Part shown: positions 15,867 to 51,344 of the stretch, piece by piece
Numbering within the stretch: position 1 is the stretch's first letter
How the letters are laid out: each line of letters starts with the position of its first letter
Assembly: GCA_046290465.1 (NCBI GenBank)
Contig: JBKAGP010000001.1
Location: 3,552,001-3,616,000 of the forward strand
Reading direction: 5' to 3'
Length of the DNA: 64,000 nt
DNA from: Planctomycetota bacterium
Lineage (GTDB): Bacteria > Planctomycetota > UBA1135 > UBA2386
The notes under the pieces: model-generated
Seen by the model: the letters and a program-made list of their open reading frames with translations, nothing else
Database searches by the model: none
Told to the model about the DNA's origin: nothing
Program-made: the position numbers and the translations under genes

Positions 15867-15928
15867 GAAAAACCGGACCGCCCAAAACCCCGTTCGCCGG
15901 CCGTCGTCTTCACCGGCACGATCGATTC

Positions 15929-26200: not shown

Positions 26201-27559
26201 GACGCGCCGAGCAAGGCCGCCGAAGCCAGCGTGAGCAAGCCGGACGGCGACAAGGCCGACAAGAAGAGCAAGCAGCTGACCCCGGTCGAACGCCGCGCCA
26301 AGGTCGCTCGCGAATGGTACCGGACCCGCATCGACGTGGCCGGCCGCGTGCTGGCCGACGAGCTGCGCAAGCTCGAGCGCGAGAAGGGCGAACTCGAACG
26401 CACGCTGCCGTCGGCGCTGGTCATGGAGGAGCTCGACGAGCCGCGCAAGACGCGCGTGTTCGTGCGTGGCGACTACCGCAACCCCGGCGAGGAGGTCGAG
26501 GTCGGCACGCCGTCGATGCTGCCCCCGATGCCGAAGGACCTGCCGAAGAACCGCCTCGGCCTGGCCAGGTGGCTGATGTCGGGCGATCACCCGCTGACCG
26601 CGCGGGTCACCGTCAACCGGGCGTGGCAGCAGTTCTTCGGCCGCGGCATCGTCAGCACGGCGGAGGACTTCGGCATCCGCGGTGCGCAGCCGAGCCACCC
26701 GCAGCTGCTCGACTGGCTGGCGACCGAGTTCGTGCAGAGCGGCTGGAACCTCAAGAAGCTGCACCGCTCGATCGTGCTGTCGGCGACCTACCGCCAGAAC
26801 GCGCACATGTCGAAGCAGGCCCTGGCCAGCGACCCCGACAACGTGCGGCTGGCGCGCGGCCCGCACCAACGCCTGACGGCCGAGATGGTGCGCGACCAGG
26901 CGCTGCACGTCGCCGGCCTGCTCAAGCAGAAGGTCGGCGGCAAGAGCGTCAAGCCGTTCCAGCCCGAGGGCCTGTGGCGCGCGACGCTCGGCTCGGGCCG
27001 CTGGTCGCAGGACAAGGATGACGAACGCTACCGCCGCGGCCTCTACGTCTACTGGAAGCGCGGCGTGCCGTACCCGTCGTTCATGGCGTTCGACGCGAGC
27101 AAGCGCGAGACCTGCACGGTGACGCGCACGCGCACGACCACGCCGCTGCAGGCGCTCGTCATGCTCAACGACCCGGTCTACGCCGAGGCCGGCCGCCACC
27201 TGGGCCAGCGCCTGCAGAAGGACGGCGGCGACGACGATCGCGCCCGCATCGCGTTCGGCTTCAAGCTGGTCGCCTCGCGCGCGCCCGAGCCCAAGGAGGT
27301 CGAGCTGCTGACCCGGCTGCTCGGCCAGCTCCGCAAGCACTACGAGGCCAACGACAAGGACGCCAAGGCGGTGCTCGGCCTGGAGGAGAAGAAGCCGAAC
27401 TCACGAGGGCGCTCGCGCGGCACCCCGACACCGAAACCCAAACCCGTCGCGCGGTCGTCGAAGCAGCGCAAGGACGACGTGCCGCCGGCCGAGGCCGCGG
27501 CCTGGGCGCAGCTCGGCTGCACGCTGCTGAACCTCGAAGCCGCGATCCGGAGGGGCTGA
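23240..27559 (+). CDS. Planctomycete cytochrome c / DUF1549 / DUF1553 protein with large insertion
   Basis: CYSCH and CAQCHDHK heme motifs; [60 protein letters not shown]. Confidence 0.92.
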
Positions 27560-27561
27560 TC

Positions 27562-28998
27562 ATGAACATGTCCGAACACCTTTCGCGCCGTTCCTTCGTC
27601 GGCGGCAGCGCCATGGGCCTCGGCTCGCTGGCGTTCTCGATGCTGTCGCAGCGCGGCCTCGCCCAGACTGCAGCGCCGACGCTGCAGGGACCGCAGGACC
27701 CCGAATGGAAGCTCGACAAGGCGCAGGCCAAGCGCGTCGTCGTGATCTTCCTGTCGGGTGGCCTGTCGCAGCAGGACCTGTTCGACGAGAAGCCGCTGCT
27801 CAACGAACGCCGCGGCGAGCAGCTGCCGCCGTCGGTGCGCCAGGGCGGCCGCGTCTCGGGCCTGACCGAGCGCCAGGGGCAGCTGCCCGTGGTCGGCAGC
27901 AAGTTCGAGTTCGAGGACTACGGCAAGTCCGGCCTGCGCATGTCCGAACTGGTGCCGCACCTCGGCGAGGTCGCCGACGACCTGTGCCTGATCCGTTCGC
28001 TGCAGAGCGACCACGTGCTGCACGAAGCCGCCAACACGATCTTCTTCACCGGCACGCAGCTGCTCGGCAGACCGTCGTGGGGCGCCTGGTCGTCGTACGC
28101 GCTCGGCGACGGCAAGAGCAACCTGCCGGAGTTCGTCGTGCTGCTGTCCAACCCCAACCCGTCGACGCCGCTGCACCCGCGGCTGTGGCACAACGGCTTC
28201 CTCGAGGGCCGCCACCAGGGCGTTCCGTTCCGCAGCGGCAAGGACCCGGTGCTGTTCGTGAAGAGCCCGAAGGGCGTCGACGAGAAGGTGCGCAAGTACC
28301 AGCTCGACGCGTTGAAGGAGCTCAACCAGATGGAGGCCGGCCGCAGCGGCGACCCGGACGCGGTCGCGCGGCTGGCGGCCTACGAGACCGCCGCGCGCAT
28401 GCAGACGAGCGTGCCCGAACTCGCCGACCTGTCGGACGAACCGGACGAACTGCTCGAGGACTACGGCGCCGAGCCGGGCGAGAGCAGCTTTGCCAACAAC
28501 TGCCTGCTGGCGCGCCGCCTGCTCGAGCGCGGGGTCAAGTTCGTGCAGCTGTGCGACGCCGGTTGGGACCACCACTTCAACATCCCGCGCGTGCTGCCGC
28601 GCAAGTGCGAACAGGTCGACAAGCCGACCGCCGCGCTGATCCGCGACCTCAAGAACCGCGGCATGCTCGACGACACGATCGTGGTGTTCGCCGGCGAGTT
28701 CGGCCGCACGCCCTACTGTGAGGGCCCGCTGGCGTTCGACACCTACGGCCGCGACCACAACAATCTGGCGTGCTCGGCGATCGTCGCCGGCGGCGGCTTC
28801 AAGGGCGGCTACGCGCACGGCAAGACCGACGACTGGGGCTGGTCCGCCGCCGAGGACATCGTGCACGTGCACGACCTGCACGCGACGATCCTGCACCAGC
28901 TGGGCATCAACCACGAGAAGCTGACCGTTCGCAGCCAGGGCCGCGACTTCCGCCTCACCGACGTCGCCGGCCGCATCGAACCCCGACTCCTCACCTGA
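27562..28998 (+). CDS. DUF1501 family protein (Tat signal)
   Basis: SRRSFV Tat motif; GGLSQQDLFD, CLLARRLLERGVKFVQ, WDHH, GEFGRTP, GRDH, HDLHATILH. Confidence 0.92.
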   Translation: MNMSEHLSRRSFVGGSAMGLGSLAFSMLSQRGLAQTAAPTLQGPQDPEWKLDKAQAKRVVVIFLSGGLSQQDLFDEKPLLNERRGEQLPPSVRQGGRVSGLTERQGQLPVVGSKFEFEDYGKSGLRMSELVPHLGEVADDLCLIRSLQSDHVLHEAANTIFFTGTQLLGRPSWGAWSSYALGDGKSNLPEFVVLLSNPNPSTPLHPRLWHNGFLEGRHQGVPFRSGKDPVLFVKSPKGVDEKVRKYQLDALKELNQMEAGRSGDPDAVARLAAYETAARMQTSVPELADLSDEPDELLEDYGAEPGESSFANNCLLARRLLERGVKFVQLCDAGWDHHFNIPRVLPRKCEQVDKPTAALIRDLKNRGMLDDTIVVFAGEFGRTPYCEGPLAFDTYGRDHNNLACSAIVAGGGFKGGYAHGKTDDWGWSAAEDIVHVHDLHATILHQLGINHEKLTVRSQGRDFRLTDVAGRIEPRLLT

Positions 28999-29592: not shown

Positions 29593-32500
29593 ATGGAAGA
29601 TCTCCGCACAGACCCGCTGCTCGCCAAGACCACCGAGGTCAAGGGCTTCAAGGTGCTGCCGCCGTGCGTGCTCTACGCCCGCATCGGCGCCGGCGGCATG
29701 GGAGCGGTCTACCGCGGCCACCACCTCAACCTCGACATCGAGGTGGCGGTCAAGTGCCTGAAGCCCGGCCTCGTCGTCGACGACCCGACGTTTGTCGACC
29801 GCTTCAAGCGCGAGGGCCGCTCCGCGGCGCGCATCAACCACCAGAACGTGATCCGCGTGTTCGACGTCGCGGAGAACCTCGGCCTGCACTACCTGATCCT
29901 CGAATACGTGCAGGGCGAGACCGCGCGGCAGCGGGTCGAACGCAAGGGCCCGCTCGCGGTCCCCGAAGCGCTGCAGATCGTCTACGAGGCGTCGCTCGGC
30001 CTCGGCGAGGCGCACCGCATGGGGATCATCCACCGCGACATCAAGCCCGACAACCTGCTGATCTCGGTGCGCGGCCAGGTCAAGGTCGCCGACCTCGGCC
30101 TGGCCAAGCCTTCGATCGGCGGCGGCCAGTCGGTCGTGTCGATGGCGGGTCAGGTGATGGGCACGCCGCCCTACATGCCGCCCGAGCAGTGGGGCGAAGG
30201 AACGGTCACCAACGCGTCCGACGTCTGGGCGATGGGCGCGGTGCTCTACTACCTGCTGACGGCGCGCGAGGCGATCCAGGGCGACTCGCTCGCCAACATC
30301 ATGAGCCGCATCGTGCTGCAGGACTTCCCGGACGTGCGCGAACTGCGTCCGGACGTTCCGCACAGCGTCGCGGCGCTGATGGCCAAGGCCACGGCCAAGG
30401 ACGCGGGACAACGGTTCTTCGACGCCACCGAGCTGGCGCACGCGGTCGCCGAGTTGCCCGAACACCGCATCTCGCTGATCGACACCGACGCCGGTACGAC
30501 CGAGCTGCGCACGATGCTGTCCCCGCCGCCGATGCCGCAGCTCGACGAGATCAAGCAGCTGCTGCGCGAGGGCAAGGTCACGACGCGCAACCAGGCGGGG
30601 CCCAACGGCCCGGCCACGGACCGGACCGGCACGGACGGTACCGGCGGGAACGGCACCGACGAGCAAACGGCCGAACGGACCGGTGCGAGGTTTCGCTGGG
30701 CGATCGTGCTGCTGGTGCTCGTGCTCGGCGGCGGCGGGGCCACCGCATGGATCAACCGGGACGCGCTGTTCGGAACCTCGCGACCGTCGGACCCCGTCCC
30801 CAACCCGGCGCGACCGAGCGTCGACCCGCTCGCGCAAGCGCGCGAACTGCAGCAGCAGCAGCGCTTCGTCGCGGCGCTGGTCGCGGCGCGCACCGCCTTC
30901 GACGATGGCGACGTTGCCGAGGACCAGGTGCTGCTGTCGCAGCTGCGCGAGGGCAGCCGCGCGCAGCTCGCCACCGCGCTGCAGCAGCTCGCGCCGAAGG
31001 CGCCGGTGCCGCGCGACCAGCCGGTGCGCTTCGAAGGCCGCTACGACGGCCCGAAGATCGACGCGCTGCTGCTCGACGACGAGCCGGTCGAGCTGGTCGC
31101 CGGCAGCTTCGCCGCGACGCGCACGCCGCCGCCGAACGGCGCCATCGAACTGGCCGCGCGCATCACGCCGACGGACACCGTGCCGATCGCGACGTGGCAG
31201 GTGACGTTTGCACCGGCCGGCCGCGACGAGCCCGCCGCGGCACCGGTGCAGTTCGTCGGCGCGGTGACCACCGACCCCGCGCTCGGGCCGCGCAACACGA
31301 TCGGCCGGTTCCCGATCACGCTCGTGGGCCGCGCCAGCGAGCCGGATCTCGAACTGCTGCTCGGCGACCAGGTGCTGACCGCCGTGCAGTGGCAGCCCGA
31401 CGGCGCGTTCACGACCGGCATCCTGCTTGCCAGGGAAGGCCGCAACGACCTGCAGCTGACCGTGCGGCGCCCCGGCGAGTTCGACGGCGCCACGACCTCG
31501 CTCGAAGTCGTGCGCCTGATCGAGCCGCCGAACGCGCGGATCGTGAGCCCGGCTGCCGCGTCGATGTCGACCAACCGGACCCGGATCGACATCGAGGTCG
31601 AGGCAGACGAGTGGACCGACCAGGTGGTGGCCGTGCTGCGCGAGCAGCGCACGGCGCTGCAGCGCATCGACGGCGGCGAACGCTGGCAGACGCCCGCACC
31701 GATCGAGCTCGACGACGGCAACAACGCGTTGGTCGTCGAAGTTCGCAACCTGACCGGCAAGGTGCGTTCGCTGCCGCTCGACGTCACCTGCACGGCGCCG
31801 ACGCCGAAGATCACAGGCGTCGCGATCGAGGTCGGCGGCGAGCGTCGCACGGTGCAGCCCGGCGAACGCGTCTGCGTGAAGCAACGACCGGGACTCGAGG
31901 TCGCGATCGACGACCCGACCGCAAAGCTCGAGGTCGACGGAAACGCACGCGAGCGCCGGTTCCTGCTGTCCTCGGGCCAACCGGGCAAGGCCCGCTCGCT
32001 GCAACTCGTCGCGGTCCAGGGCAAGCGCCGTTCGAAGCCGTTCGGCCTGACGATCGTCGTCGACACCGAGAAGCCGACGCTGCGCGCCGACGCCGTGCCG
32101 CCGGCCGCGGCCGGCACCGAGGTCGTCGTGCGCGGCACCTGGTCCGACAACGTCGGGGTGCGTTCGATCGGCGCGATCGGTGGCGACGCTCCGAAGGCGA
32201 AGGTCACCCGCGACACGCCGCGCAGCGGCAGCTTCGAACTGCGCCTGACCGTCGGCGGGCAGAGCCGCAAGGTGCCGCTGCTGATCGAGGACGAGGCCGG
32301 CAACACGACGCAGACGCTGGTGACGATCGCGACCGCCACCGCGAGCCCGGTCGTGGTCGAGCCCGACCGGCCGACGCTCGCGCGCACGATCGACGCCGGC
32401 CAGTTCGAGGCGATCGGCGCGCTCAACCGCGCCGGCTACCCGAAGGCGCTCCGGCACAAGGCCACGCGCATCGAGCTGCTGGCGGTCGACCTGCCGGACG

Positions 32501-32850
32501 ACGGCGCGCCAACGCTCTACGTCGGTCGCGAGGTCGTCAGCGACGTGCAGTGGAACGGCGACGGCGACGGCAGCAACCAGGGCAGCCTGACCTGGCTGGA
32601 CGTCAACTCGAGGCTGCGCGAAGCGCGCTTCGCCGGCCTGCGCCTGCCCACCAAGCAGGAGTGGCAGCGCATCCGTTCTGCCAACGTCTCAGGCATCAAG
32701 ATCGGCGGCGCCCGCGAGTGGCTCGCCCAGTCGCCCGACGAGAGCGTCGACATGCGCCCCCTGTGGGACGGCAGGCAGGTGACCGCCGCCAAGCTACGCT
32801 TCTCCGACAGCTACACCGGCTTCCGCGTCGTCTTCGCCCCCACCCGCTGA
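29593..32850 (+). CDS. Membrane Ser/Thr protein kinase with extracellular Ig-like repeats and degenerate FGE-sulfatase-like C-terminus
   Basis: GAGGMG, VAVK, HRDIKPDN, DLG, GTPPYMPPEQ; TM WAIVLLVLVLGGG; C-terminal RLPTKQEW..REW..GFRV. Confidence 0.9.
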   Translation: MEDLRTDPLLAKTTEVKGFKVLPPCVLYARIGAGGMGAVYRGHHLNLDIEVAVKCLKPGLVVDDPTFVDRFKREGRSAARINHQNVIRVFDVAENLGLHYLILEYVQGETARQRVERKGPLAVPEALQIVYEASLGLGEAHRMGIIHRDIKPDNLLISVRGQVKVADLGLAKPSIGGGQSVVSMAGQVMGTPPYMPPEQWGEGTVTNASDVWAMGAVLYYLLTAREAIQGDSLANIMSRIVLQDFPDVRELRPDVPHSVAALMAKATAKDAGQRFFDATELAHAVAELPEHRISLIDTDAGTTELRTMLSPPPMPQLDEIKQLLREGKVTTRNQAGPNGPATDRTGTDGTGGNGTDEQTAERTGARFRWAIVLLVLVLGGGGATAWINRDALFGTSRPSDPVPNPARPSVDPLAQARELQQQQRFVAALVAARTAFDDGDVAEDQVLLSQLREGSRAQLATALQQLAPKAPVPRDQPVRFEGRYDGPKIDALLLDDEPVELVAGSFAATRTPPPNGAIELAARITPTDTVPIATWQVTFAPAGRDEPAAAPVQFVGAVTTDPALGPRNTIGRFPITLVGRASEPDLELLLGDQVLTAVQWQPDGAFTTGILLAREGRNDLQLTVRRPGEFDGATTSLEVVRLIEPPNARIVSPAAASMSTNRTRIDIEVEADEWTDQVVAVLREQRTALQRIDGGERWQTPAPIELDDGNNALVVEVRNLTGKVRSLPLDVTCTAPTPKITGVAIEVGGERRTVQPGERVCVKQRPGLEVAIDDPTAKLEVDGNARERRFLLSSGQPGKARSLQLVAVQGKRRSKPFGLTIVVDTEKPTLRADAVPPAAAGTEVVVRGTWSDNVGVRSIGAIGGDAPKAKVTRDTPRSGSFELRLTVGGQSRKVPLLIEDEAGNTTQTLVTIATATASPVVVEPDRPTLARTIDAGQFEAIGALNRAGYPKALRHKATRIELLAVDLPDDGAPTLYVGREVVSDVQWNGDGDGSNQGSLTWLDVNSRLREARFAGLRLPTKQEWQRIRSANVSGIKIGGAREWLAQSPDESVDMRPLWDGRQVTAAKLRFSDSYTGFRVVFAPTR

Positions 32851-32875
32851 AGGCCACCGAACGACCAGCCACCAA

Positions 32876-32975
32876 CCACCGCATACCGAACCGGGTTCAT
32901 CCTGCGCCACTTGCCGCGCCTTGCGCGCAAGGCGCGGCAAGTGGCGCAGGATGAACCCGGTTCGGTATGCGGTGG
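32876..32975. repeat. Perfect 100-bp palindrome with no spacer
   Basis: Checked base by base: 32876-32925 is the exact reverse complement of 32926-32975. Confidence 0.95.
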
Positions 32976-32977
32976 GG

Positions 32978-33880
32978 TCAGAAGCGCACGCCGGCGGTCA
33001 GCATGACGCCGTTCCAGTCGTCGTCGACGCCGAAGAAGACCGCGTTGTTGTAGGTCTCGGTCGTGCCGACGTGGTACTTGCTGCCGACGTAGCTGAGGCT
33101 CGTCAGCAGGCCGAACGCGAAGCGGTAGCGGACGCCGAACTCGTAGTCGAGCGTGAAGGAGTAGCCCTCTTCGCTGTCGACGTTGTCCTCGACGTCGGTC
33201 GCGCCGGCACCGGCGGCGATCTCGGCGAACACCGACAGCTCGCTGATCTTGCCGTCGTGGTTGTTCTGCATCAGGATGACCTCGGGCTCCGCGGACAGCC
33301 GCACGCCCACCGTCGTGCGCTCGATCGCGCCATCGGTGAACCCGGCGTTGTCCTGCTCCGTCATCCGCATGAACGGTCCGAAGCGCACCGGCAGGCGGAA
33401 GTCGTCGTCCATCGTCGCGCGGAACGTCGCCGCGAGGAACAGACCCGAGCTGTCGTACGACGAGTCCGTCGCCCCCAGGTCCTCGTCGATGTCGTCCGCC
33501 AGCCCGAGGAAGCCCTCCGCGAAGATGCCGAAGCCCGACTGGAAGAAGTGCTCACCGCGCAGACGGAATCGCTGCGACGACGCGCTGCGCGCGGTCACCG
33601 GCGGGGTGCCGAGCGGATTGCCGGTGTTGACCTCGAGGGTCTGGTCGCCGATGCCGAGCCCGAACGTCACCATCGTGCGCGGGTGGATCTGGTCGATGTC
33701 GGGCAGCGCGTCCTGCGGCGGCGCTGCGACGTTGGCCAGCGGCGTCGGGCTCGCGGCGAACGAGGCCGGCTCGGTCGCCCAGCCCGCGGCGCGATGGCCG
33801 GGTGCTGCGCAGCTCGCCATCAGGGCGGCGAGGGCGAGGAGAGACGTAGGGAGAAGACGGTTCGATGCGGTTGGGTGCAT
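32978..33880 (-). CDS. Outer-membrane beta-barrel-like protein with lipoprotein-type signal
   Basis: MASC lipobox-like motif; alternating amphipathic strands; terminal LTAGVRF beta-signal. Confidence 0.75.
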   Translation of the reverse strand: MHPTASNRLLPTSLLALAALMASCAAPGHRAAGWATEPASFAASPTPLANVAAPPQDALPDIDQIHPRTMVTFGLGIGDQTLEVNTGNPLGTPPVTARSASSQRFRLRGEHFFQSGFGIFAEGFLGLADDIDEDLGATDSSYDSSGLFLAATFRATMDDDFRLPVRFGPFMRMTEQDNAGFTDGAIERTTVGVRLSAEPEVILMQNNHDGKISELSVFAEIAAGAGATDVEDNVDSEEGYSFTLDYEFGVRYRFAFGLLTSLSYVGSKYHVGTTETYNNAVFFGVDDDWNGVMLTAGVRF

Positions 33881-33944
33881 GTCTCGGATCCGGATGCGAA
33901 GGCGTGGCGCGCACGAGTCTAGGCACCCGCCCGCCGGTTCTCCG

Positions 33945-34919
33945 TCACCCGTGATGGTTTTCGCGCAGGCAACGGCGCCCGGATCGTCGCGTTGCAGCGA
34001 GACATGCAACCGCGATGTAACCCGTCGCGACCGACGCACCGAGCGCCCACGACCAATCCTCGTCGGGCCACCAGATCGTGAGCGGCCAGAACACCAGCAC
34101 CAGGTGCGCGAGGTAGTGCTGCAGCGACCAGCGACCGACCACCGCGAGGATCCGAGACCGCAGCCGCAGCAGGTAGAGCGACGCGATCGACGCACAGGCA
34201 GCGCCACCCCACAGCAGCACGAACGGCAGCGAGGTCGGCTGCCAGGTGACGTCGAGGTGCGCCGCGACACCACCCGCCTCGGCATCGCCCCAGCGATCGC
34301 ACACCAGCGCGGCGAGCATCGCCACGAGCCCCACCACCAGCCAGGCGCACAGCGCGCGCCGCGACCAACGCGCGCGACCGAGCCGCAGACCGAGCAGCGG
34401 AAACGCCAGCCAGGGCAACAACGGGTAGGCGCCGTGCAGCACGAAGTAGCGCAGCGTGTGCATGCCCAGCGAGTGGTTCGCCTCGTGCGTGCCGTCGGCG
34501 CGGATCTCGGTCCACGCAAAGCCACCCCACGACGCGGTCGCCCACGGCACCGCACCCAGCAGCGCCGACAACACCAACCACGTCACCTGCGGCCGCCCGC
34601 GCAGCAGGGCGACGACCGGCAGCATGCAGGCGATCGGGATCAGGATGTCGTTGGGCCAGACCCACACCCAGAACGGCAGCCCGAGCAGCACCAAAGACGC
34701 GGCGCGCCGCACCACCGCGCGCAAGTTCCGTTCGCCGCCGGCCGCGGCGCTGACCCCGACCAGCATCGTGAACATCGCGGCCGGCAGCGCGTCGAATGCC
34801 CACACCGAAGTCCACGGTCCGTCGTCGGGCACGAAGTGCACCCAGACCATCAGCAGCACCGCCAGCCCGCGCGCGGCGTCGAGGGTCTCGTCACGGCGCG
34901 ATGCGGGCGCGGCGTCCAT
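33945..34919 (-). CDS. DUF418/DUF1624 (HGSNAT-like) multi-TM acyltransferase-like protein
   Basis: LDAARGLAVLLMVWVH, YPLLPW and GRWSLQHYLAH motifs; many TM helices. Confidence 0.75.
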   Translation of the reverse strand: MDAAPASRRDETLDAARGLAVLLMVWVHFVPDDGPWTSVWAFDALPAAMFTMLVGVSAAAGGERNLRAVVRRAASLVLLGLPFWVWVWPNDILIPIACMLPVVALLRGRPQVTWLVLSALLGAVPWATASWGGFAWTEIRADGTHEANHSLGMHTLRYFVLHGAYPLLPWLAFPLLGLRLGRARWSRRALCAWLVVGLVAMLAALVCDRWGDAEAGGVAAHLDVTWQPTSLPFVLLWGGAACASIASLYLLRLRSRILAVVGRWSLQHYLAHLVLVFWPLTIWWPDEDWSWALGASVATGYIAVACLAATRRSGRRCLRENHHG

Positions 34920-34929
34920 CGCGGCAAGG

Positions 34930-37900
34930 CTACGTGATCTCGTCGGTCGGCGCGCCGGCGTAGCGGCGGGCCGGCAACAGGCGTTCGCGCTTCATGACGA
35001 CGCTGTGCGGCATCACGTGCGCGTCGTCGCCGACGTCCGCGCCGTAGAGCACGACGGCGCCGCGACCGACCGTGCAGCGCGCGCCGAGGCGGACGCGATC
35101 GATCTTGAGCACGCGATCCTCGAAGCTGTGCGCCTGGAACAGCGCGTGCACCGTGGCGCCGTCCTCGATCGTGATCATGTCCGGATCGACGACCTGCGCG
35201 AAGCCGTCGCCGAGCACGCAGCGACGGCCGATGCGCATGCCCATCGCGCGCAGGTACCACGGCAGCAGCAGCGTGCCTTCGAGCGGCGTCAGCAGCGCGC
35301 GCCCATAGCGTTGCCACATCACGTAGTGGAAGTCCCAGCGGCTCGCCCAGCACGACCACAGCCCGTGCTGCCCCGGCCGGACACGACCGAGCAGCAGCCA
35401 CTTGGTCCCCAGCACCACCGCGGCCAGCGCCGCCGCGGCGGTAGCCGTCGCCGCGAGCACGCCGCCGAAGCCCCACGCGGCAAACGCGTCGAACCACCAC
35501 AGCGCCAGCGCCGTCGGCAACGCCGGCAGCGCGAACCGCAGCGCCTCCCAGAACAGCCGGTTGACGACCCGCAGCGGCCCCGGTTCGTAGGTCAGGCGAC
35601 GGTCGACGGCGACGACCTCGCGCTGCGGCAGCGAAAACGCAGGGTGGCCGAACCACGACGATCCGGCGCGCATCGTCGCGTCGTCCGCGACCGTGCTGAT
35701 GCCGAGCAACAGGTCGTCCGGCAGGCGTTGGCCCTGTTCGACGACCACGTGGTTGCCGACGAACGTCCGCGCACCGAGCGACGTCGAGCCGACCGTCACC
35801 AGCCCCTGGTGGATGCGCGGCACGCCGAGGTAGACGCCGTCGGCCAAGAACGAATGGCCGCCCAGCGACGTGCGTTCGGGCAGCACGTCGTGGATCGAAC
35901 TGACCTCGACGTCGTGCGCCACCCGCATGCCCGCCAGCCGCAGCCAGCGCGGCCAGAACAACGTGCCCGACAGCCACTCGCCGGCGTCCTCGAGCCACCG
36001 CATGCGCACCGTCATCCACCAGTGCCGCAGCGACCAGCGCGAGAACGTTCCTTCGGCCACGCCCGGCAGCAGACGCAGCAGCAGCGCGATCTGCAGCACG
36101 CCGAGCGGCACCGCCAGCAGCGACGCCGCCACCAACCAACCGAACAGCGCCGGCGTCGACGACGGCCCGTCGACGAGCAACCACTGGCGCACCGCGGCGC
36201 CGTCGACGGCGAACGTGTCGGCCAGCAGCCAGGCAACCAGCGCCCACGGCAGCCAGACCAGCGCCGAGCCGAACAGTCGCAGCGCCAGCACCGCGATCGA
36301 ATAGCGCCACGCGCGGCCCGCGCCGGCTCGCGGCGCCCGCGGCGCCTGCCCGACCGTCTCGGCGGGCACCCCGTCGACGACGTGGCCCGCCGCGACGCGC
36401 ATCCCCGACGGAACGAACGTCAGCGGCCGCACGATCGCACCGGCGCCGACCTCGGCGTCCGGGCCGATGCCCGAACGCGCCTCCAGCGTCGCGCCGGCAC
36501 CGATCCGCACCGCCCCGACCACCAACTCGCCGTCGTCGAGTTCGCAGGTGCCGAGCTCGACGTCGCGGCCGAGCGTCACGTCGTCACCGAGGTCGAGCAA
36601 GTCCCAGCCGCCGTCGTGCAGCGCGACGCCGCGGTGCACGTGCACGCGCCGGCCGACGCGCGCGCCGAGCAGGCGCAGCACGACCGACTGCAGTTCGGTG
36701 CCCTCGAGCCAACCCCACGGCACCAGCTGCGCCAGCCGCGCCACGATCCAGTGGCGCAACCGCATTGCGCTCCACGCGGACACGCGGCCCGGCCGGTAGC
36801 GGCCGATCAGCGTCCACTTCGCCACCACCGCGGCGACGACCCCGAGAGCGCCGAACGCGACCCGCGTCACCGGCACGAGCCAGGGCAACGCGAACAGCAC
36901 CACCACCAGCGGCAGCGACAGCAGCCACGGCAGCAGCCAGGCGGCAAGGCCCCACATCGCTCCCGACGCCGCCAGCAGCAGCCCGGACAGAAACAGCACC
37001 TGCACCAGCGAGAACGCCGCGAGGCTGCCCTGCGCCGAACCGTGCGTCGAAGCATCCACCGAGCGGTCGACGCCACTGCCTGCGCGCGTGCCGACGGCCG
37101 CGAGCAGCCCGGCGACGGTCGGCGTCCGGTAGACGTCGCGCACCGCGACGGCCTGCAGCGCCCGGTGATCGCGCAGCCGCGACACCAGCATCGCCGCGCG
37201 CAGCGAGTTGCCGCCGCACGCGAAGAAGTCGTCGTCGTCCGCGAGCCGCTCGGCGGGCAGACCGAGCACTTCGCCAAAGCCGCGACGCAGCGCGGCGTGG
37301 GCCGTGCCGTCGTCGACGAACGTGTCGGCGACCGCCGTGACCTCGATCGGCGGCAGCTGCTTGCGCGAGACCTTGCCGCCGACGGTGCGCGGCAGGCTGC
37401 GCAGCCAGGCGAAGTGCGCCGGCACCATGTAGGCCGGCAGCTCGCTCGCGACGGCCTGCGTCAGCGCTGCGACCTCGGGGCGCGCGGCGTCGTCGGCCGG
37501 CACCACGTGCGCGACCAGGAAGCGCTCGGGTTCGTTGCCCTGCACGGCCAGCGCGACCTCGCGCACGCCGGGGCAGCGCGCCAGCACCGTTTCGATCGCC
37601 TCGAGCTCGATGCGATAGCCGCGCACCTTGACCTGCGCGTCGATCCGGCCGTGGTAGTGCAGCCGGCCCCGTTGGTCGACCGTGACCAGGTCCCCGGTGC
37701 GGTAGACGCGGCCGATGCCGGGCAGCGTCGGGAAGCGCTGCTCGGTCAGTTCGTCGAGCCCGAGATAGCCGCGCGCCAGCCCCGGCCCGGCGATGCACAG
37801 CTCCCCGGGCCACCCGGGTGGGACCGGCTGCAGCTGCTCGTCGAGCACGTGCGCGACGTGCGGCGGAACCGGCGCGCCGATCGTGACCGGCTCGCCGGGT

Positions 37901-38838
37901 AGTACCTGCCCGCGCACGACCGTGACCGTGCACTCGGTCGGCCCGTAGCCGTTCTCGAGTCGCAGCGCGCCGCCCCAGACCTCGGCCAGGTCGTCGGACA
38001 GCGACTCGCCGCCGACGTAGCACATGCGCAGCTCGGGCAGTTCGTCACGCGGCGAACGGCAGGCCATCGTGCGCAGCAGCGTCGGCGGTGGGCACAGGAT
38101 CGTGACGCGTTCGCGCCGTAGCCACGCGACCAGGTCCGGGCCGGACCGCACCGTCACGTCGTCCATCACGACGAGCGCCGCACCCGCGGCCAACGCCAGC
38201 CAGATCTCCTCGACCGACGAGTCGTAGGCCGGCGAACTGTTCTGCGACATCCGGTCGGTCGGCGACATCGCGAACCGCTGCAGGCCCTGCTCGATCAGGT
38301 TGACGACGCCGCGGTGCTCGACCAACACGCCCTTCGGCTTGCCGGTCGTGCCCGACGTGTAGATCGCATAGGCGAGGCTGCGTTCGGTGGACCACGCCGG
38401 CAGCGGCGCCGGCGCCCCCTGCAGCGGAGCGACCTCGTCGCAGGCCTCCGGCACGACGAACACCGGCACGCCGAAGCCGTCGAACCGCGCCCGCGAGGCT
38501 GCGTCGGTGATCACGCACACCGCGGCCGTGTCGCGCACAACGTGCGCGACGTGCGCATCCGGAAAGCCGCCGTCGAGACAGACGTGCGCCGCGCCGGCCC
38601 ACAGCACGCCGAGCTGCGCCGCGTAGAGCCACGGCGTCTCCCGCGGCAGCAGCACCACGACCATCGCCTCGCGGTCGACGTGCCCGAGCAGTTCGCGCCG
38701 CACGCGGTCGGCCATCGCGCACAGCTGCGCGTAGCGGACCTGTCGCCGTTCTGGCCGGTCCACGCCCGGCGGCACCTCGACCGCCAGCCGCTCGCCGTGC
38801 CGCGCGACACTTCGCAGGAACAGATCCGTCAGCAGCAT
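34930..38838 (-). CDS. Pls/PosA-like single-module membrane NRPS (A-T-TM plus three hexapeptide-repeat domains)
   Basis: A-domain cores YTSGTTGKPKG, NGYGPTE, YRTGD, GRIDAQVKVRGYRIEL, GGKV; T-domain FFACGGNSL; three TM-flanked units with LRLLGARVG, LRLAGMRVA and LRAMGMRIG; about 1300 aa, like Streptomyces Pls. Confidence 0.9.
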   Translation of the reverse strand: MLLTDLFLRSVARHGERLAVEVPPGVDRPERRQVRYAQLCAMADRVRRELLGHVDREAMVVVLLPRETPWLYAAQLGVLWAGAAHVCLDGGFPDAHVAHVVRDTAAVCVITDAASRARFDGFGVPVFVVPEACDEVAPLQGAPAPLPAWSTERSLAYAIYTSGTTGKPKGVLVEHRGVVNLIEQGLQRFAMSPTDRMSQNSSPAYDSSVEEIWLALAAGAALVVMDDVTVRSGPDLVAWLRRERVTILCPPPTLLRTMACRSPRDELPELRMCYVGGESLSDDLAEVWGGALRLENGYGPTECTVTVVRGQVLPGEPVTIGAPVPPHVAHVLDEQLQPVPPGWPGELCIAGPGLARGYLGLDELTEQRFPTLPGIGRVYRTGDLVTVDQRGRLHYHGRIDAQVKVRGYRIELEAIETVLARCPGVREVALAVQGNEPERFLVAHVVPADDAARPEVAALTQAVASELPAYMVPAHFAWLRSLPRTVGGKVSRKQLPPIEVTAVADTFVDDGTAHAALRRGFGEVLGLPAERLADDDDFFACGGNSLRAAMLVSRLRDHRALQAVAVRDVYRTPTVAGLLAAVGTRAGSGVDRSVDASTHGSAQGSLAAFSLVQVLFLSGLLLAASGAMWGLAAWLLPWLLSLPLVVVLFALPWLVPVTRVAFGALGVVAAVVAKWTLIGRYRPGRVSAWSAMRLRHWIVARLAQLVPWGWLEGTELQSVVLRLLGARVGRRVHVHRGVALHDGGWDLLDLGDDVTLGRDVELGTCELDDGELVVGAVRIGAGATLEARSGIGPDAEVGAGAIVRPLTFVPSGMRVAAGHVVDGVPAETVGQAPRAPRAGAGRAWRYSIAVLALRLFGSALVWLPWALVAWLLADTFAVDGAAVRQWLLVDGPSSTPALFGWLVAASLLAVPLGVLQIALLLRLLPGVAEGTFSRWSLRHWWMTVRMRWLEDAGEWLSGTLFWPRWLRLAGMRVAHDVEVSSIHDVLPERTSLGGHSFLADGVYLGVPRIHQGLVTVGSTSLGARTFVGNHVVVEQGQRLPDDLLLGISTVADDATMRAGSSWFGHPAFSLPQREVVAVDRRLTYEPGPLRVVNRLFWEALRFALPALPTALALWWFDAFAAWGFGGVLAATATAAAALAAVVLGTKWLLLGRVRPGQHGLWSCWASRWDFHYVMWQRYGRALLTPLEGTLLLPWYLRAMGMRIGRRCVLGDGFAQVVDPDMITIEDGATVHALFQAHSFEDRVLKIDRVRLGARCTVGRGAVVLYGADVGDDAHVMPHSVVMKRERLLPARRYAGAPTDEIT

Positions 38839-38884
38839 GGGCAACCGCGCGCATCATGGACCGCGACGACGTCCGCCGCCACGA

Positions 38885-39388
38885 TCACGCCTGCTGCAGC
38901 ATCGCCAGCACGTGCGACGACGCCAGCGGCAACACCCGACGCCGGACTTCGTCGTCGAGATGACGGAACCCGCGGATGAAGCCACGGCAGTCCACGGCGC
39001 CACAACCACACGCGAACGGTTCGGCCATGTCCCACTCGTTGGACTCGTAGTCGAACGTCACCTGTTCGCCCGCCCGGATCGCGCGGTTGGCGACCAGCGT
39101 GCGCTCGTGCAGCACCGCGTTGGGAGAGCACGCGTGGTTGAGGAAGCGCCACACGTAGCGATTGGCCCGCCCCTTCGGATCGACGTCGTGCGGCGCGTCG
39201 ACGTGACGACCGACCCCGACCTGCACCGAGTAACGCGTCGGCCGACGATAGATCTCGCCGTCGAGATAGAGGATCGCGCCACCGGCCGCGACGTCGACCG
39301 CGGCGACCAATGCCAACTCGCCATCGCGCTCGGTGACGCGCACGCGGCAGGCTGGATCGGCCGTCCGGGGATGCTCGAGGGGTTCCAT
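38885..39388 (-). CDS. SET-domain N-methyltransferase with post-SET Zn motif
   Basis: RFLNHACSPN, IRAGEQVTFDY, post-SET FACGCGAVDCRG. Confidence 0.9.
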   Translation of the reverse strand: MEPLEHPRTADPACRVRVTERDGELALVAAVDVAAGGAILYLDGEIYRRPTRYSVQVGVGRHVDAPHDVDPKGRANRYVWRFLNHACSPNAVLHERTLVANRAIRAGEQVTFDYESNEWDMAEPFACGCGAVDCRGFIRGFRHLDDEVRRRVLPLASSHVLAMLQQA

Positions 39389-39540
39389 GGCCAACGGTTG
39401 CCTGCCCGGCCCCGCGAGGGGACGCAAGAAACCGGCGATACGAACATCGACCCCCTACGAGAACCCGGCCCGACGCACACCAGCGTCGCGATGGCAACGG
39501 GCGCACGGCTACAATCCGCGCCAACTCGCCTCGCTCATCC

Positions 39541-41970
39541 ATGCGCACCGACCCCCTGCAATCGGACGCCGTGGAGCTGCTCCGCCAATCGCTGGAACAT
39601 ACCTCGCCTCCAGCCCTGGTCGTCGACAGCTCTACCTGCACCATCGTCATCGCCAACGCCCTCGCCCGCGACGCCGGCTTCACCGCCGGCGACGACGCCG
39701 AGACCGGCCTGCTCGACCGGCTGACGCCGCCCGAGGCCGAACGAGAACCGCTCGCCAGCGCCCTGCGCAACCGGAAGGCGACCGTGGCTCGCTGGACCGG
39801 GCCGCACGGTCCGCTGACGCTGCGCCTGCAGCCGCTCGACACCGGCAACGACCCGCCCCTGGTGCAAGCGACCTGGTCGCTGCAGCCCGACACGCGCGGG
39901 GTCCCCGCCGACGCGTTCGTGCAGGCACAGCGCGAACTGCACGACTGGCTGGCGCGCACGCCGGTGACGCGCAGCAACCTCGACGGCGTCATCCGCGACC
40001 TGTGCGAACGGATCTGCGAGCTCTACGACCTCGAGCGTGCCGCGGTGTGGCTGTTCACCGACGACCAGCAGGAGCTGCGTTGCCGCGACCTGTTCCTCCG
40101 CTCGAAGCGCGAGCACCAGTGCTCTCAGCACCTGCACGCCAGCGAGTGCAGCGCCGAGTTCGAGACGCTGCGCCGTTCGCTCTACGTCGACGTGCACGAT
40201 GTCGCGACCGACCCCCGCGCCGCTGGCTACCGCGACAGCTACCTCGGGCCGAACGGCATCACGTCGATGCTGGACGCGGTGATCCGCTTCGGCGGTCGCT
40301 GCTACGGCACCCTGTGCCTCGAGCACGTCGGCAAGCAGCACGTCTGGCAGCAGCACGAGATCGACTTCGCCTGCAAGATCGCGAGCTACCTCGCAACGGC
40401 CCTCGAGTCGCTGGCGCGCTCCGAGGCCGAGGCGAAGGTGCGCGAACGCGAGCAGTTCCTGCGCACGCTGATCGACGGCAGCCCGGTCGGCATCCAGGTG
40501 TTCGCACCGGACGGCACGTCGCGACGGATGAACACCGCGATGCAGCGCATCATCGGGCTGCCGTCGACGACTTACGACATCGGCAGCTACAACCTGCTCA
40601 ACGACCCGCAGGCGCAGAGCAGCGGCCTCGACGTGGTGTTCCGCCAGGCGCTCGCCGGACGCCCCAGCCAGATCGCGCGGCACGAAGTGCACCTCGGCGC
40701 CGACGGCTTCGAAGGCGGCGAACGTCGCCAGGATCCGTTCTGGCTCGAGTCGGTGTTCTTCCCGGTGCTCGACCAGGCCGACGAGGTCGAGGCGGTGGTC
40801 GTGTTCGCGTGGGAGGTGACCGACCGGGTCGACGCCGAACGCAAGCAGCAACAGCTACAGGAACAGCTGCGCCAGTCGCAGAAGCTCGAGGCCGTCGGCA
40901 AGCTCGCCGGCGGCGTCGCGCACGACTTCAACAACATCCTGACCGCGGTGCGCGGCTTCACCGACGTACTCGACATGGAGCTCGAACGTGGCGACGGCCG
41001 CCGCGAACTGGTCGAACAGATCCGCAAGGGGGCCGACCGCGGCGCCGCGCTGACGCAGCAACTGCTCGCGTTCGGCCAGCGGCAGATGACCCGCCTGGAG
41101 ACGATCGACGCCGGCAACGCCATCGTCGAGATGATGCCGATGTTGCGCCGCCTGCTGGAGGCCAACATCCACGTCGACGTGCTCGCATCGGCGTCCGCGA
41201 CGATCCACGCCGACCGCCACCAGCTGCAGCAGGTCCTGCTCAACCTGTTCGTCAACGCGCGCGACGCGATGGTCGACGGCGGCACCATCGAGGTCCGCAT
41301 CGGCCGCGTCGACGACGCCGACGGTGACGCCGGTGGCCAGATGAAGCTGACCGTGCGCGACGACGGCGAAGGCATGGACGAGGCGACGCTGCGCCAGGTG
41401 TTCGAGCCGTTCTTCACCACCAAGCCGGACGGCGTCGGCACCGGCCTCGGACTGTCGACCGTCTACGGCATCGTGCACGAGGCGGGCGGCACCATCACCG
41501 CGCACAGCGAACCGGGCGAGGGCACGTCCATCGAGATCCTGTGGCCGCTCGCGACCGAGACGGCGAGCCCGCAAACGCCGCACGCCACCCAACTGCACGC
41601 GCAGAACGGCGAGCGGGTGCTGGTCGTCGAGGACGACGACGCCAACCGCCAGCTCGCGACCCGCGTGCTGACGCGCTACGGCTACGACGTGTTGTCGGCG
41701 CCGGACGGGGAGACCGCGCTCGAACTCGTGACGAGCGAGGATCGCATCGACGTGATGCTGACCGACGTCGTCATGCCGGGCATCGGCGGGCGCCTGCTCG
41801 CGCAGGAGGCAGCCGCCGTTCGCCCGGACCTACGCATCGTCTTCACAAGTGGTTACACGAGCGACGACGTGCTCCGGCACGGCGTGCGCGAGCACCTGGT
41901 CGCCTTCTTGCCGAAGCCCTACTCGGCCCGACAACTCGCCGCGATCGTCGCCGAATCGCTACAACGGTGA
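39541..41970 (+). CDS. Hybrid sensor histidine kinase (GAF-PAS-HisKA-HATPase-REC)
   Basis: AGGVAHDFNNIL, NLFVNARDAM, DDGEGM, FEPFFTTK, GTGLGL, REC LTDVVMP..KP. Confidence 0.93.
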   Translation: MRTDPLQSDAVELLRQSLEHTSPPALVVDSSTCTIVIANALARDAGFTAGDDAETGLLDRLTPPEAEREPLASALRNRKATVARWTGPHGPLTLRLQPLDTGNDPPLVQATWSLQPDTRGVPADAFVQAQRELHDWLARTPVTRSNLDGVIRDLCERICELYDLERAAVWLFTDDQQELRCRDLFLRSKREHQCSQHLHASECSAEFETLRRSLYVDVHDVATDPRAAGYRDSYLGPNGITSMLDAVIRFGGRCYGTLCLEHVGKQHVWQQHEIDFACKIASYLATALESLARSEAEAKVREREQFLRTLIDGSPVGIQVFAPDGTSRRMNTAMQRIIGLPSTTYDIGSYNLLNDPQAQSSGLDVVFRQALAGRPSQIARHEVHLGADGFEGGERRQDPFWLESVFFPVLDQADEVEAVVVFAWEVTDRVDAERKQQQLQEQLRQSQKLEAVGKLAGGVAHDFNNILTAVRGFTDVLDMELERGDGRRELVEQIRKGADRGAALTQQLLAFGQRQMTRLETIDAGNAIVEMMPMLRRLLEANIHVDVLASASATIHADRHQLQQVLLNLFVNARDAMVDGGTIEVRIGRVDDADGDAGGQMKLTVRDDGEGMDEATLRQVFEPFFTTKPDGVGTGLGLSTVYGIVHEAGGTITAHSEPGEGTSIEILWPLATETASPQTPHATQLHAQNGERVLVVEDDDANRQLATRVLTRYGYDVLSAPDGETALELVTSEDRIDVMLTDVVMPGIGGRLLAQEAAAVRPDLRIVFTSGYTSDDVLRHGVREHLVAFLPKPYSARQLAAIVAESLQR

Positions 41971-47910: not shown

Positions 47911-48513
47911 TCAGCGGGTGGATTCTTCTTGGCGGAGTTTGCCCAGGCGGAGGGCGAGGCGGGAGAGGCCGCGGTGGACGAGGTTGCGGACGGCGGGCAC
48001 GCTGCGATCCATGCGCTCGGAGATCTCCTCGTATTCGAGGCCGCACAGGCGGCGCATGCTGATCGCGTCCTGGTAGTCGGGCGAGAGTTCGCCGAACGCG
48101 CGCTCGATGCGCTCGATCTCCTCGGCGCTCTGCACCTCGCCGCTCGGCGACAGCAGTTCTCCGATCAGGGAGTGCTCACCCGAACGGGCATCGATCGCCT
48201 TCTCGCGATCGGGCGTGCGCTTGTCGGCATCGACGTAGCGCGCCTTGTCGACCAGCTTGCGCTGCGCCTTGACGTAGAGCCAGTGACGGAACGCGGCCTC
48301 GCCGCGCCACTCGAACCCGCTCAGGTCCCCGAGCGCCTCGCGACAGACCGACTGCACCAGGTCGTCGGGCGTCTCCTTCGAGCGGAGCTTGGCGCCCATG
48401 CGCAACTGCAGCCACGAACGCAACCCGGGGAGGTGGCGGACGAGGAGAACTTCGACCGCCTCGCGGTTTTGCGCCTTTGCACGTGTGACGAGTGGCAGGC
48501 TCGATTCGCTCAT
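47911..48513 (-). CDS. ECF sigma factor, kinase-associated planctomycete type
   Basis: LRSKETPDDLVQ, FRHWL, LEYEEISERMDRSVPAVRNLVHRG; divergent from two Ser/Thr kinases. Confidence 0.88.
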   Translation of the reverse strand: MSESSLPLVTRAKAQNREAVEVLLVRHLPGLRSWLQLRMGAKLRSKETPDDLVQSVCREALGDLSGFEWRGEAAFRHWLYVKAQRKLVDKARYVDADKRTPDREKAIDARSGEHSLIGELLSPSGEVQSAEEIERIERAFGELSPDYQDAISMRRLCGLEYEEISERMDRSVPAVRNLVHRGLSRLALRLGKLRQEESTR

Positions 48514-48589
48514 ACCGTTGCGGAAGTCTACCCTGAGCTTCCCACCCTCGTCCCATTGCTCCCCGCGCGGCGATTCGCCCGCCCGCAAT

Positions 48590-51337
<2,748 letters not shown>

Positions 51338-51344
51338 CGAACGG

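Follow-up and report, generated by a model that had tools for sequence, protein, structure and literature searches.

Pls of Streptomyces albulus (epsilon-poly-L-lysine) and PosA of Acinetobacter baumannii (delta-poly-L-ornithine) are synthetases with a single module of adenylation (A) and carrier (T) domains and neither a condensation nor a thioesterase domain. According to the available text of PMC10522769, the adenylation pocket of every cationic homo-poly(amino acid) synthetase has Asp as its first residue and Glu as its third, and in PosA Thr304 and Ser313 bind the amine. The same text describes a CHPA-synthetase homologue from a 'Bdellovibrionales bacterium', known there from an A-domain assay, whose pocket reads DSECYGGVTK: the A domain activated L-Arg, the four diamino acids Lys, Orn, Dab and Dap gave no higher activity, and a larger analogue was proposed by the authors. 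BurB of Burkholderia thailandensis, which methylates free Met (PMC12542666), and MSMT of Streptomyces mobaraensis are SET-domain methionine S-methyltransferases linked to thiotemplate pathways. Here, we describe a four-gene unit in a stretch of 64,000 nucleotides from a Planctomycetota genome (the window), in which a SET-domain protein is paired with a synthetase of the Pls/PosA type.

Organization of the locus

The four open reading frames are co-oriented on the minus strand, beside two divergent hybrid histidine kinases, as the first-pass annotation had described. They encode a SET-domain SAM-dependent methyltransferase (38885..39388, 167 aa), a single-module membrane synthetase (34930..38838, 1302 aa), an AT3/HGSNAT-like integral-membrane acyltransferase (33945..34919, 324 aa) and a predicted outer-membrane beta-barrel (32978..33880, 300 aa). 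With ATG starts, the successive gaps are the 46, 10 and 64 nt already given in that annotation; an alternative TTG start of the synthetase gene at 38844 would reduce the first to 40 nt. The -10-like boxes that had been attributed to the last two genes were not recovered by a consensus scan for sigma-70-like promoters, which returned no site in 32500-39800. A perfect palindrome of 100 bp (32876..32975; 50-nt arms, 100% complementary, no spacer) delimits the unit on its 3′ side, 2 nt past the stop codon of the barrel gene. This repeat is dispersed over about 55 places in the genome (110 matches when both strands are counted).

A distinct clade of Pls/PosA-type synthetases

The second gene had been read as a Pls-like A-T-membrane synthetase with hexapeptide repeats, which is borne out by Pfam and, at a score below the curated cut-off, by the NCBIfam model TIGR02353 ('Pls/PosA family'). 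The adenylation domain (37366..38808, residues 11-491; AMP-binding and AMP-binding_C) is followed by the carrier domain (37087..37287, residues 518-584; PP-binding, E 1.7e-11, with a GGNS serine motif in the translation) and by a predicted terminal polymerizing domain (34942..36879, residues 654-1299), membrane-embedded, in which three hexapeptide-repeat modules alternate with hydrophobic blocks according to TIGR02353, Hexapep and hydropathy. The blocks lie at residues 604-679, 848-878, 894-928 and 1123-1151 in a crude hydropathy scan. AMP-binding, AMP-binding_C and PP-binding are the only NRPS domains, Pfam detecting no Condensation or Thioesterase domain, as in Pls and PosA.

The C-terminal membrane domain matches TIGR02353 over nearly the whole model (E 1.1e-104, model positions 37-694 of 695), but its 351 bits fall below the curated cut-off of 423. 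Members of the window's clade score 335-390 bits against this model, whereas canonical members score 600-810, and identity between the clade and other Pls types in Pseudonocardiaceae is 34-37%. The genome holds no other Pls-type gene at E < 1e-5, save one weak partial match. The clade is mostly a stand-alone gene, as reported for PosA in the available text of PMC10522769, but many of its members have a dedicated SET partner and some an AT3 fusion, in which they differ from Pls and PosA.

Read from motif anchors in the A domain, the pocket of the window's synthetase is DSETYGGVTK. The same method applied to canonical relatives gives DMESNGTVSK, one residue off the published DMEHNGTVSK of PosA. 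DSETYGGVTK recurs in 60 of 66 SET-linked loci. Among 59 metagenome synthetase loci, 44 have it, 8 are partial and 7 differ by 1-4 residues. Canonical Pls relatives in the window's phylum carry DMESNGTVSK or DAETIGTVVK and occur without SET. The synthetase belongs to a distinct Pls/PosA-type clade whose adenylation pocket hardly varies. This pocket retains the Asp and Glu described as common to cationic homo-poly(amino acid) synthetases (available text of PMC10522769), but it differs from that of PosA and from the Ala-containing lysine type; Gly and Thr stand in place of Thr304 and Ser313 of PosA, and Tyr occupies position 5. The synthetase is not a Pls of the lysine or ornithine type: its pocket is one position off that of the 'Bdellovibrionales bacterium' homologue, which activates L-Arg without preferring any of the four diamino acids named in the available text of PMC10522769. 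L-Arginine is the sole amino acid reported in that text to be activated by the near-identical pocket.

Acyltransferase and barrel genes

AT3-family and HGSNAT-type proteins are membrane acyltransferases. The third gene product matches HGSNAT_cat (40.7 bits, cut-off 22) and Acyl_transf_3 (33.4 bits, cut-off 31) in Pfam and has four hydrophobic segments in a crude hydropathy scan. Its earlier description as DUF418/HGSNAT-like stands for the HGSNAT part; the DUF418 model has no match in the window's protein and matches in fused relatives. What distinguishes it from AT3/HGSNAT-type proteins is its position, fused to or behind a Pls-type synthetase. The two are fused in frame in three loci (L009, L089 and L102, confirmed by Pfam), long fused open frames also occur in six others (L011, L012, L020, L021, L032 and L034), and in L047, L078 and L080 the acyltransferase has a gene of its own, downstream of the synthetase. 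Because of the in-frame fusion in relatives, the acyltransferase can be assigned to the synthetase system, in support of the membership first suggested for it; literature searches returned no published description of such a fusion.

The product of the fourth gene has a lipoprotein-type signal peptide ending in LMASC and a C-terminal Phe, and belongs to no Pfam or NCBIfam family. In the ESM Atlas its neighbours are barrels of the OMP_b-brl/OpcA type (feature score 0.95, TM 0.65-0.73), a lead rather than proof for the predicted barrel. Homologues lie downstream of a Pls-AT3 gene in L089 (52% identity) and in L101, L102, L104 and L105; this recurrence within a close subclade agrees with the earlier inclusion of the gene in the unit. 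None was found in 80 SET-family loci.

The SET methyltransferase

The SET/post-SET identity of the first gene is confirmed by a Pfam SET match (PF00856) of 37.8 bits, above the cut-off of 22.4, and by its hallmark motifs. An alignment of 37 family members shows no variation in NHxC, in FDY or in the CxCx4C of the post-SET zinc cluster, nor at N84, H85, C87, Y114, C127, C129 and C134. It is the sole SET gene detected in the genome and encodes no signal peptide; the product is predicted to be a cytoplasmic enzyme with N-methyltransferase hallmarks (NHxC, Tyr114). Its residue aligned with the Phe/Tyr switch, as placed by MLL1 numbering, is Phe; under the Phe/Tyr-switch rule for SET enzymes, Phe would permit multiple methylation.

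A PDB comparison with the AF2 model (mean pLDDT 90.1) gives 289 matches with E no higher than 0.001. Among the best 46 of these, BurB comes first (E 1.5e-10), as the nearest solved relative by fold, followed by SET-domain histone methyltransferases. BurB also leads a profile comparison (2.1e-18 versus 2.2e-14 for MLL1), ahead by only about 13 bits, and the two proteins share 24-26% identity. Like BurB and MSMT, the window's SET protein is bacterial and small (about 170 aa), has a cysteine cluster after the SET domain and a helix at the C-terminus, and is linked to a thiotemplate pathway. It differs from BurB in motif, the SET family having FLNHSC for LLLHSC and TFDY for TMDY, and in partnership, since BurB is associated with DMSP-pathway enzymes whereas the partner of the window's SET family is a Pls-type synthetase. 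The gene context of BurB and MSMT, with downstream DMSP-pathway enzymes, is not seen in the SET-linked loci, where only the synthetase is conserved.

Two properties bear on the likely substrate. The net charge of about -2 gives no sign of a surface adapted to holding a long polycation and, as the enzyme has no signal peptide and the product is presumably exported, a free amino acid would fit better than the finished polymer.

Conservation of the SET-synthetase pair

Adjacency unique to this genome had been named beforehand as a refuting result for the pair, and the survey found the opposite. The Pls-like synthetase lies directly downstream of SET, on the same strand, in 66 of 80 SET-family loci, at a median match distance of 75 nt; of the 14 others, 2 end less than 200 nt past SET. 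The loci span six phyla according to their record titles, namely Planctomycetota, Actinomycetota, Verrucomicrobiota, Acidobacteriota, Gemmatimonadota and Armatimonadota. In 201 Pseudonocardiaceae genomes, SET orthologues occur at 13 places in 12 genomes, orthologues of the clade synthetase at 13 places (at least 61% identity), and these are the same 13 adjacent pairs (13/13). Canonical Pls-type genes, found in 137 of the 201 genomes (a count that includes G608, flagged as unpublished), are without SET. Distances among SET proteins and among their synthetases co-vary over the 66 loci (r 0.858, reached by 0 of 999 permutations), although the shared species tree alone would produce part of this correlation for any two genes. 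Besides the synthetase, no neighbour is conserved in SET-linked loci. Conservation marks SET and the Pls-like gene as a functional pair, and literature searches, in line with the first-pass annotation, found no described SET-Pls pathway.

Viewed from the synthetase, the picture is different. Among 46 metagenome loci that hold the start of the A domain, SET adjoins in 6 and is missing from 40, 34 of which include 1400 nt or more upstream and keep the DSETYGGVTK-type pocket; the SET-labelled and SET-less sets came from different searches, and such proportions are not comparable as population estimates. An orthologue of SET is absent from 7 of 33 genomes with a clade synthetase (four of the seven are drafts that are 87-95% complete, and three have no stated completeness), and the pocket is unchanged. 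In the sample from the window's phylum, 12 of 16 genomes with a clade synthetase have a SET orthologue, adjacent in 10 and on another contig in 2; so do all 12 such genomes in Pseudonocardiaceae, and 2 of 5 in a sample of Acidobacteriota. The four SET-less genomes of the window's phylum show no SET orthologue at E 0.01, with a single partial match of 19.7 bits, and retain the same pocket. Some genomes carry SET away from the synthetase, and absence from a contig is not absence from the genome: L104 and L106 match genomes with SET on another contig. In the synthetase tree, SET-linked and SET-less members interleave, with at least 14 state changes; no alignment column of the synthetase shows SET-specific conservation, and SET apart, no neighbour is conserved around the clade synthetases. 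The dependence is one-sided: SET is tied to the synthetase, and the synthetase clade is mostly without SET.

Possible roles of the SET enzyme

The reading to which we lean, tentatively and with a little less than even confidence, is that SET is an optional SAM-dependent N-methylating accessory to a cationic amino-acid polymer likely made by the paired synthetase, not an obligatory monomer supplier. Three points were counted against this reading: the missing signal peptide, the net charge of about -2 and the BurB precedent, which is that of a monomer-making enzyme.

Rather unlikely, in our estimation, is that SET makes the obligatory monomer by methylating free lysine to N-epsilon-di- or trimethyl-lysine. 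This cation, about as large as arginine, is what the enlarged pocket would choose and the synthetase then polymerize. The substrate of BurB is a free amino acid bound for a thiotemplate line (PMC12542666 and the available text of PMC7496086), SET is cytoplasmic and encoded by the first gene of the unit, and the pairing is complete in Pseudonocardiaceae. The pocket, with its replacements of Thr304 and Ser313 and its Tyr, would also suit a larger substrate such as the authors suggested for the arginine-activating enzyme with the near-identical pocket (available text of PMC10522769). Against a monomer defined by SET, most clade members lack SET yet have the same pocket, including those in the 7 SET-less genomes and the 34 metagenome loci, and no synthetase residue co-varies with SET; moreover, once di- or trimethylated, the side chain offers no nucleophile for forming the isopeptide bonds by which the family is defined.

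We consider it improbable that SET is a regulatory protein-lysine methyltransferase, acting on the synthetase or another protein and leaving the product untouched. All protein-lysine SET hallmarks are present, relatives bear the database name 'protein-lysine N-methyltransferase', and dispensability would suit a regulator; however, no lysine or other synthetase column is specific to SET-linked members, the nearest solved relative among the best 46 of 289 PDB matches acts on a free amino acid, and a general protein modifier would not usually be tied exclusively to one synthetase clade over six phyla. Still more doubtful is a BurB-like conversion of methionine to S-methylmethionine, a sulfonium amino acid then loaded by the synthetase. 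BurB is the top structural and profile match, and a sulfonium cation without hydrogen-bonding capacity would suit a pocket devoid of polar helpers, but identity to BurB is low, the Asn of NHxC that is retained in the family is replaced by Leu in BurB, no BurI-, BurD- or BurE-like or other conserved neighbour was found in the surveyed loci, and SET-less synthetases weigh as they do against monomer supply. That the adjacency reflects chance or hitch-hiking without shared function is highly improbable and disfavoured: many clade members lack SET and some genomes have it elsewhere, but order, strand and short gap are kept in 66 of 80 SET loci across six phyla, and the 13 pairs in Pseudonocardiaceae stand against SET-less canonical Pls genes in 137 genomes.

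With SET as an optional accessory, a pathway can be proposed whose chemical steps are all predictions. The A domain would activate a bulky cationic amino acid and pass it to the T domain. Joining of the units and outward movement of the product would fall to the membrane-embedded domain with its three hexapeptide-repeat modules. The AT3/HGSNAT-like protein would acylate the product at the outer face of the membrane, and the barrel lipoprotein may pass or hold it at the outer membrane. The target of SET would be a lysine-type amine, carried by a free amino acid entering the pathway, as methionine is for BurB, or by the growing chain at its free side-chain end, and its Phe at the switch position would let it do so more than once. 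As SET is absent from many members of a clade whose pocket is unchanged, it is more likely to be an optional tailoring enzyme of this synthetase family than an obligatory supplier of its monomer.

Organization of the locus

The host genome, 6.59 Mb on a single contig, has one gene of the SET type and one of the Pls type; the two adjoin each other within the window, whose G+C content is approximately 71%. The first-pass annotation described four minus-strand genes at 32978–39388 and two divergent hybrid histidine kinases, and the ORF coordinates and spacing as well as the nature of both kinases agree with that description. The first gene (38885–39388) encodes a 167-aa protein with a Pfam SET match, hereafter SET. 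The second (34930–38838) encodes a 1302-aa synthetase with AMP-binding, PP-binding and hexapeptide-repeat domains, which matches the NCBIfam model TIGR02353 ‘Pls/PosA family’ (E 1.1e-104) at 351 bits, below the curated cut-off of 423. The third product (33945–34919), the acyltransferase, matches HGSNAT_cat and Acyl_transf_3, and the fourth (32978–33880), a candidate barrel and hereafter the barrel, carries a predicted lipoprotein-type signal peptide, has OMP_b-brl/OpcA barrels as ESM Atlas neighbours and was assigned to no family in Pfam or NCBIfam.

The unit ends at a perfect 100-bp palindrome (32876–32975; 50-nt arms, no spacer), located where the barrel gene and a Ser/Thr-kinase gene converge. 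It has 110 matches in the genome on both strands, corresponding to about 55 places, many at 85–100% identity, and resembles dispersed palindromic elements of the REP or MITE kind. Around the locus lie three large genes for Ser/Thr protein kinases and one for an ECF sigma factor (29593–32850 and 48350–54011), none of them conserved with the SET–synthetase pair. Elsewhere in the window are a gene for a PSCyt1/PSCyt2/PSD1 protein followed by a DUF1501 gene (23300–28998), a pair typical of Planctomycetota-type genomes, and a large bacterial alpha-2-macroglobulin-like gene (MG2, A2M and TED domains) followed by an Endonuclease_1 gene (15799–21513). Genes of the PSCyt/PSD/DUF1501 type, along with how the nearest loci are labelled, point to a planctomycetotal host.

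The acyltransferase and the barrel

Membership of the last two genes had been considered less certain. The acyltransferase can be tied to the synthetase because in relatives the two are fused in frame: three loci (L009, L089, L102) contain one uninterrupted frame with AMP-binding, PP-binding, Hexapep and HGSNAT_cat/Acyl_transf_3/DUF418 matches, six further loci contain similar long frames, and in verrucomicrobial and armatimonadetal loci the acyltransferase is a separate gene after the synthetase. Homologues of the barrel lie downstream of the fused gene in five loci (L089, L101, L102, L104, L105), of which L102 holds all four parts, and none occurs in the 80 loci collected around SET, so that by its distribution the barrel is a feature of a subclade.

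Pairing of SET with one synthetase clade

An alignment of 37 SET homologues was used to search species-representative genomes and retrieved 80 loci, with six phyla represented in the record titles. The pairing proposed from this one genome recurs widely: a synthetase homologue lies downstream of SET on the same strand in 66 of the 80 loci, the matches lying 75 nt apart in the median. Of the 14 others, two stop less than 200 nt from SET, leaving 12 that are informative. Across the 66 loci, the pairwise distances among SET proteins correlate with those among the synthetases (r 0.858, reached in 0 of 999 permutations), a relationship to which shared species history contributes.

An order-level genome sample around Lentzea was too diluted, and only its centre genome matched. 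Among 201 Pseudonocardiaceae genomes, SET orthologues occupy 13 places in 12 genomes, and synthetase orthologues, taken as those at least 61% identical to the Lentzea copy, are found in these 12 genomes as well, again at 13 places and every one directly downstream of SET. All remaining Pls-type genes in this sample reach at most 37% identity, and canonical Pls-type genes are present in 137 of the 201 genomes (a count that includes one genome, G608, flagged as unpublished). Since SET pairs with this clade while canonical genes are common, its tie, as judged from gene neighbourhoods, is to one clade of the synthetase family and not to Pls enzymes generally. One Pseudonocardiaceae genome (G601) has two complete SET–synthetase pairs on different contigs and, 10 kb away from one of these pairs, a third Pls-type gene that is of a different kind. 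In a Lentzea genome (G301), a gene of the SET-linked type (366 bits) occurs alongside a canonical Pls-type gene (730 bits); as the two types coexist there, they presumably make different products.

The synthetase pocket

Ten A-domain specificity positions were read from motif anchors. The pocket is DSETYGGVTK in the window synthetase and in 60 of the 66 SET-linked loci; among the other six, two are truncated, two are incomplete yet agree as far as they go, and two deviate by one or two residues. Read in the same way, canonical relatives from the phylum of the window give DMESNGTVSK and DAETIGTVVK. The former is only one residue off the DMEHNGTVSK given for PosA in PMC10522769, which validates the reading. 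The same source gives DSECYGGVTK for a homologue from a ‘Bdellovibrionales bacterium’, whose A domain activated L-Arg without preference for Lys, Orn, Dab or Dap, and by analogy this suggests arginine as the one experimental lead to the monomer.

Synthetases without SET

In the reverse direction, metagenome contigs were scanned with an alignment of terminal domains from the clade, yielding 80 loci. The A-domain start is present in 46 of these; SET is adjacent in six and not in 40, 34 of which have at least 1400 nt of upstream sequence available. The pocket of the 59 metagenome loci with an A-domain match is DSETYGGVTK in 44, differs by one to four residues in seven and is partial in eight. In the window's phylum, 16 of 301 genomes carry the clade (15 by terminal-domain matches of 335–390 bits, one, G257, by the A domain), and 12 of them have a SET orthologue, adjacent in ten and on another contig in two. 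The remaining four genomes, 87–95% complete, gave no SET orthologue at E 0.01 (a single partial match of 19.7 bits was seen) and retain the same synthetase pocket. In Acidobacteriota, the clade occurs in five of 251 genomes and SET in two of these five, once adjacent and once on another contig. Conversely, no Pls-type gene was found in one draft genome that carries SET. SET-linked and SET-less members are interleaved on a tree of 109 synthetases, with at least 14 state changes; the 2865 nt upstream of the window synthetase's nearest neighbour (L097) contain no SET, and no column of the synthetase alignment is conserved specifically with SET.

In these samples, SET is almost never found apart from the clade synthetase, and the synthetase is often found without SET and is then unchanged. 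SET tied to the synthetase, yet dispensable to it, fits an optional accessory role, and an optional tailoring enzyme for the synthetase product is our leading reading, to which we give somewhat less than an even chance. That SET is instead the obligatory supplier of a methylated monomer is unlikely. That the synthetase occurs unchanged without SET also points to an ordinary metabolite as the monomer.

The type of SET enzyme

The aligned SET homologues retain NHxC, the tyrosine of FDY and the CxCx4C of the post-SET region, and the structure model of SET is confident (pLDDT 90.1). The nearly invariant Phe112 aligns to the first Tyr of the TYDY motif of MLL1, which we take to be the Phe/Tyr switch, where Phe would permit multiple methylation. 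The best solved match is BurB, by fold (E 1.5e-10) and by profile (2.1e-18, versus 2.2e-14 for MLL1); BurB is described in PMC12542666 and PMC7496086 as a 172-aa SET enzyme that supplies a thiotemplate pathway of Burkholderia with S-methylmethionine made from free methionine. We consider it quite improbable that SET methylates proteins. A BurB-like sulfonium route is more doubtful still, as identity to BurB is only 24–26% and BurB lacks the Asn of NHxC. The predicted cytoplasmic location together with the BurB precedent would favour a free amino acid as substrate, although a deep channel in the SET domain might also admit the one free side-chain terminus of an elongating chain. The net charge of SET, examined for a polycation-binding surface, is near zero and uninformative.

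Other contexts of SET

The 12 informative SET loci without a synthetase have heterogeneous housekeeping genes as contexts. In four planctomycete-type loci (L024, L037, L038 and L090, the last from genome G208), SET is not beside a synthetase, and in several of them it has a UDP-GlcNAc 2-epimerase gene on one side and, on the other, genes for a response regulator or hybrid kinase and for a PaaK-like AMP-binding protein, which appears to be a second recurring context. A histidine kinase as a conserved part was rejected: the divergent kinase of the window is only 28% identical to that beside the unlinked SET of L090, and kinase-like matches at E 1e-40 occur in two of 173 loci. All-against-all clustering of flanking ORFs returned no further conserved neighbours; besides SET and the synthetase, it recovered just shadow ORFs within the latter and lineage-limited synteny. 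SET–synthetase fusion, raised by the first-pass annotation, did not appear among the best 150 of 359 strong SET representatives, and a search for longer SET proteins at E 1e-15, which is weak evidence, found none. The strongest representatives (P0095, P0096, P0097) are proteins of 1415–1479 aa with five to nine tandem SET copies, and an ATP-grasp (Dala_Dala_lig_C) stretch is additionally present in P0097 and P0213; the tandem-SET proteins could be assembly or gene-calling artefacts. The absence of any functional link between SET and synthetase, with which these mixed contexts would agree, has only a very slight probability given recurrence of the pair across phyla.

Possible product and significance

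The food preservative epsilon-polylysine is a product of Pls-type enzymes, as are a few related polycations with antimicrobial activity. To our knowledge, all known enzymes of this type use a plain diamino acid substrate and act alone or with a monomer-supply gene. It is possible, though doubtful, that the clade makes a new polycation of an arginine-sized cationic amino acid, and that SET exhaustively methylates a lysine-type amine, either free and then incorporated or at the chain's free end, giving a permanently charged quaternary-ammonium polymer or a chain-length-setting cap. The monomers may be alpha-amide-joined, since arginine-sized side chains have no usable nucleophile, and such a polymer would differ from every known Pls product.

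No paper joining SET with Pls-type enzymes was found in the literature searched; the reverse test, the almost invariant pocket, the relationship to BurB and the acyltransferase fusion are added by this analysis. The clade that this locus defines is large, widely distributed and uncharacterised, has an almost invariant non-canonical pocket and is present in culturable soil actinomycetes (Lentzea, Kutzneria, Amycolatopsis, Actinoplanes), and strains with and without SET provide a natural contrast that makes its role directly testable. The clade would have recruited two tailoring activities new to Pls-type enzymes, methylation by a SET-domain protein and acylation by a membrane enzyme that can be part of the synthetase chain, and would offer a direct route to new modified polycations. 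After BurB, SET would be the second case in bacteria of such an enzyme serving secondary metabolism rather than acting on chromatin-like proteins and, if the proposed polymer chemistry is true, the first acting on a non-ribosomal polymer.
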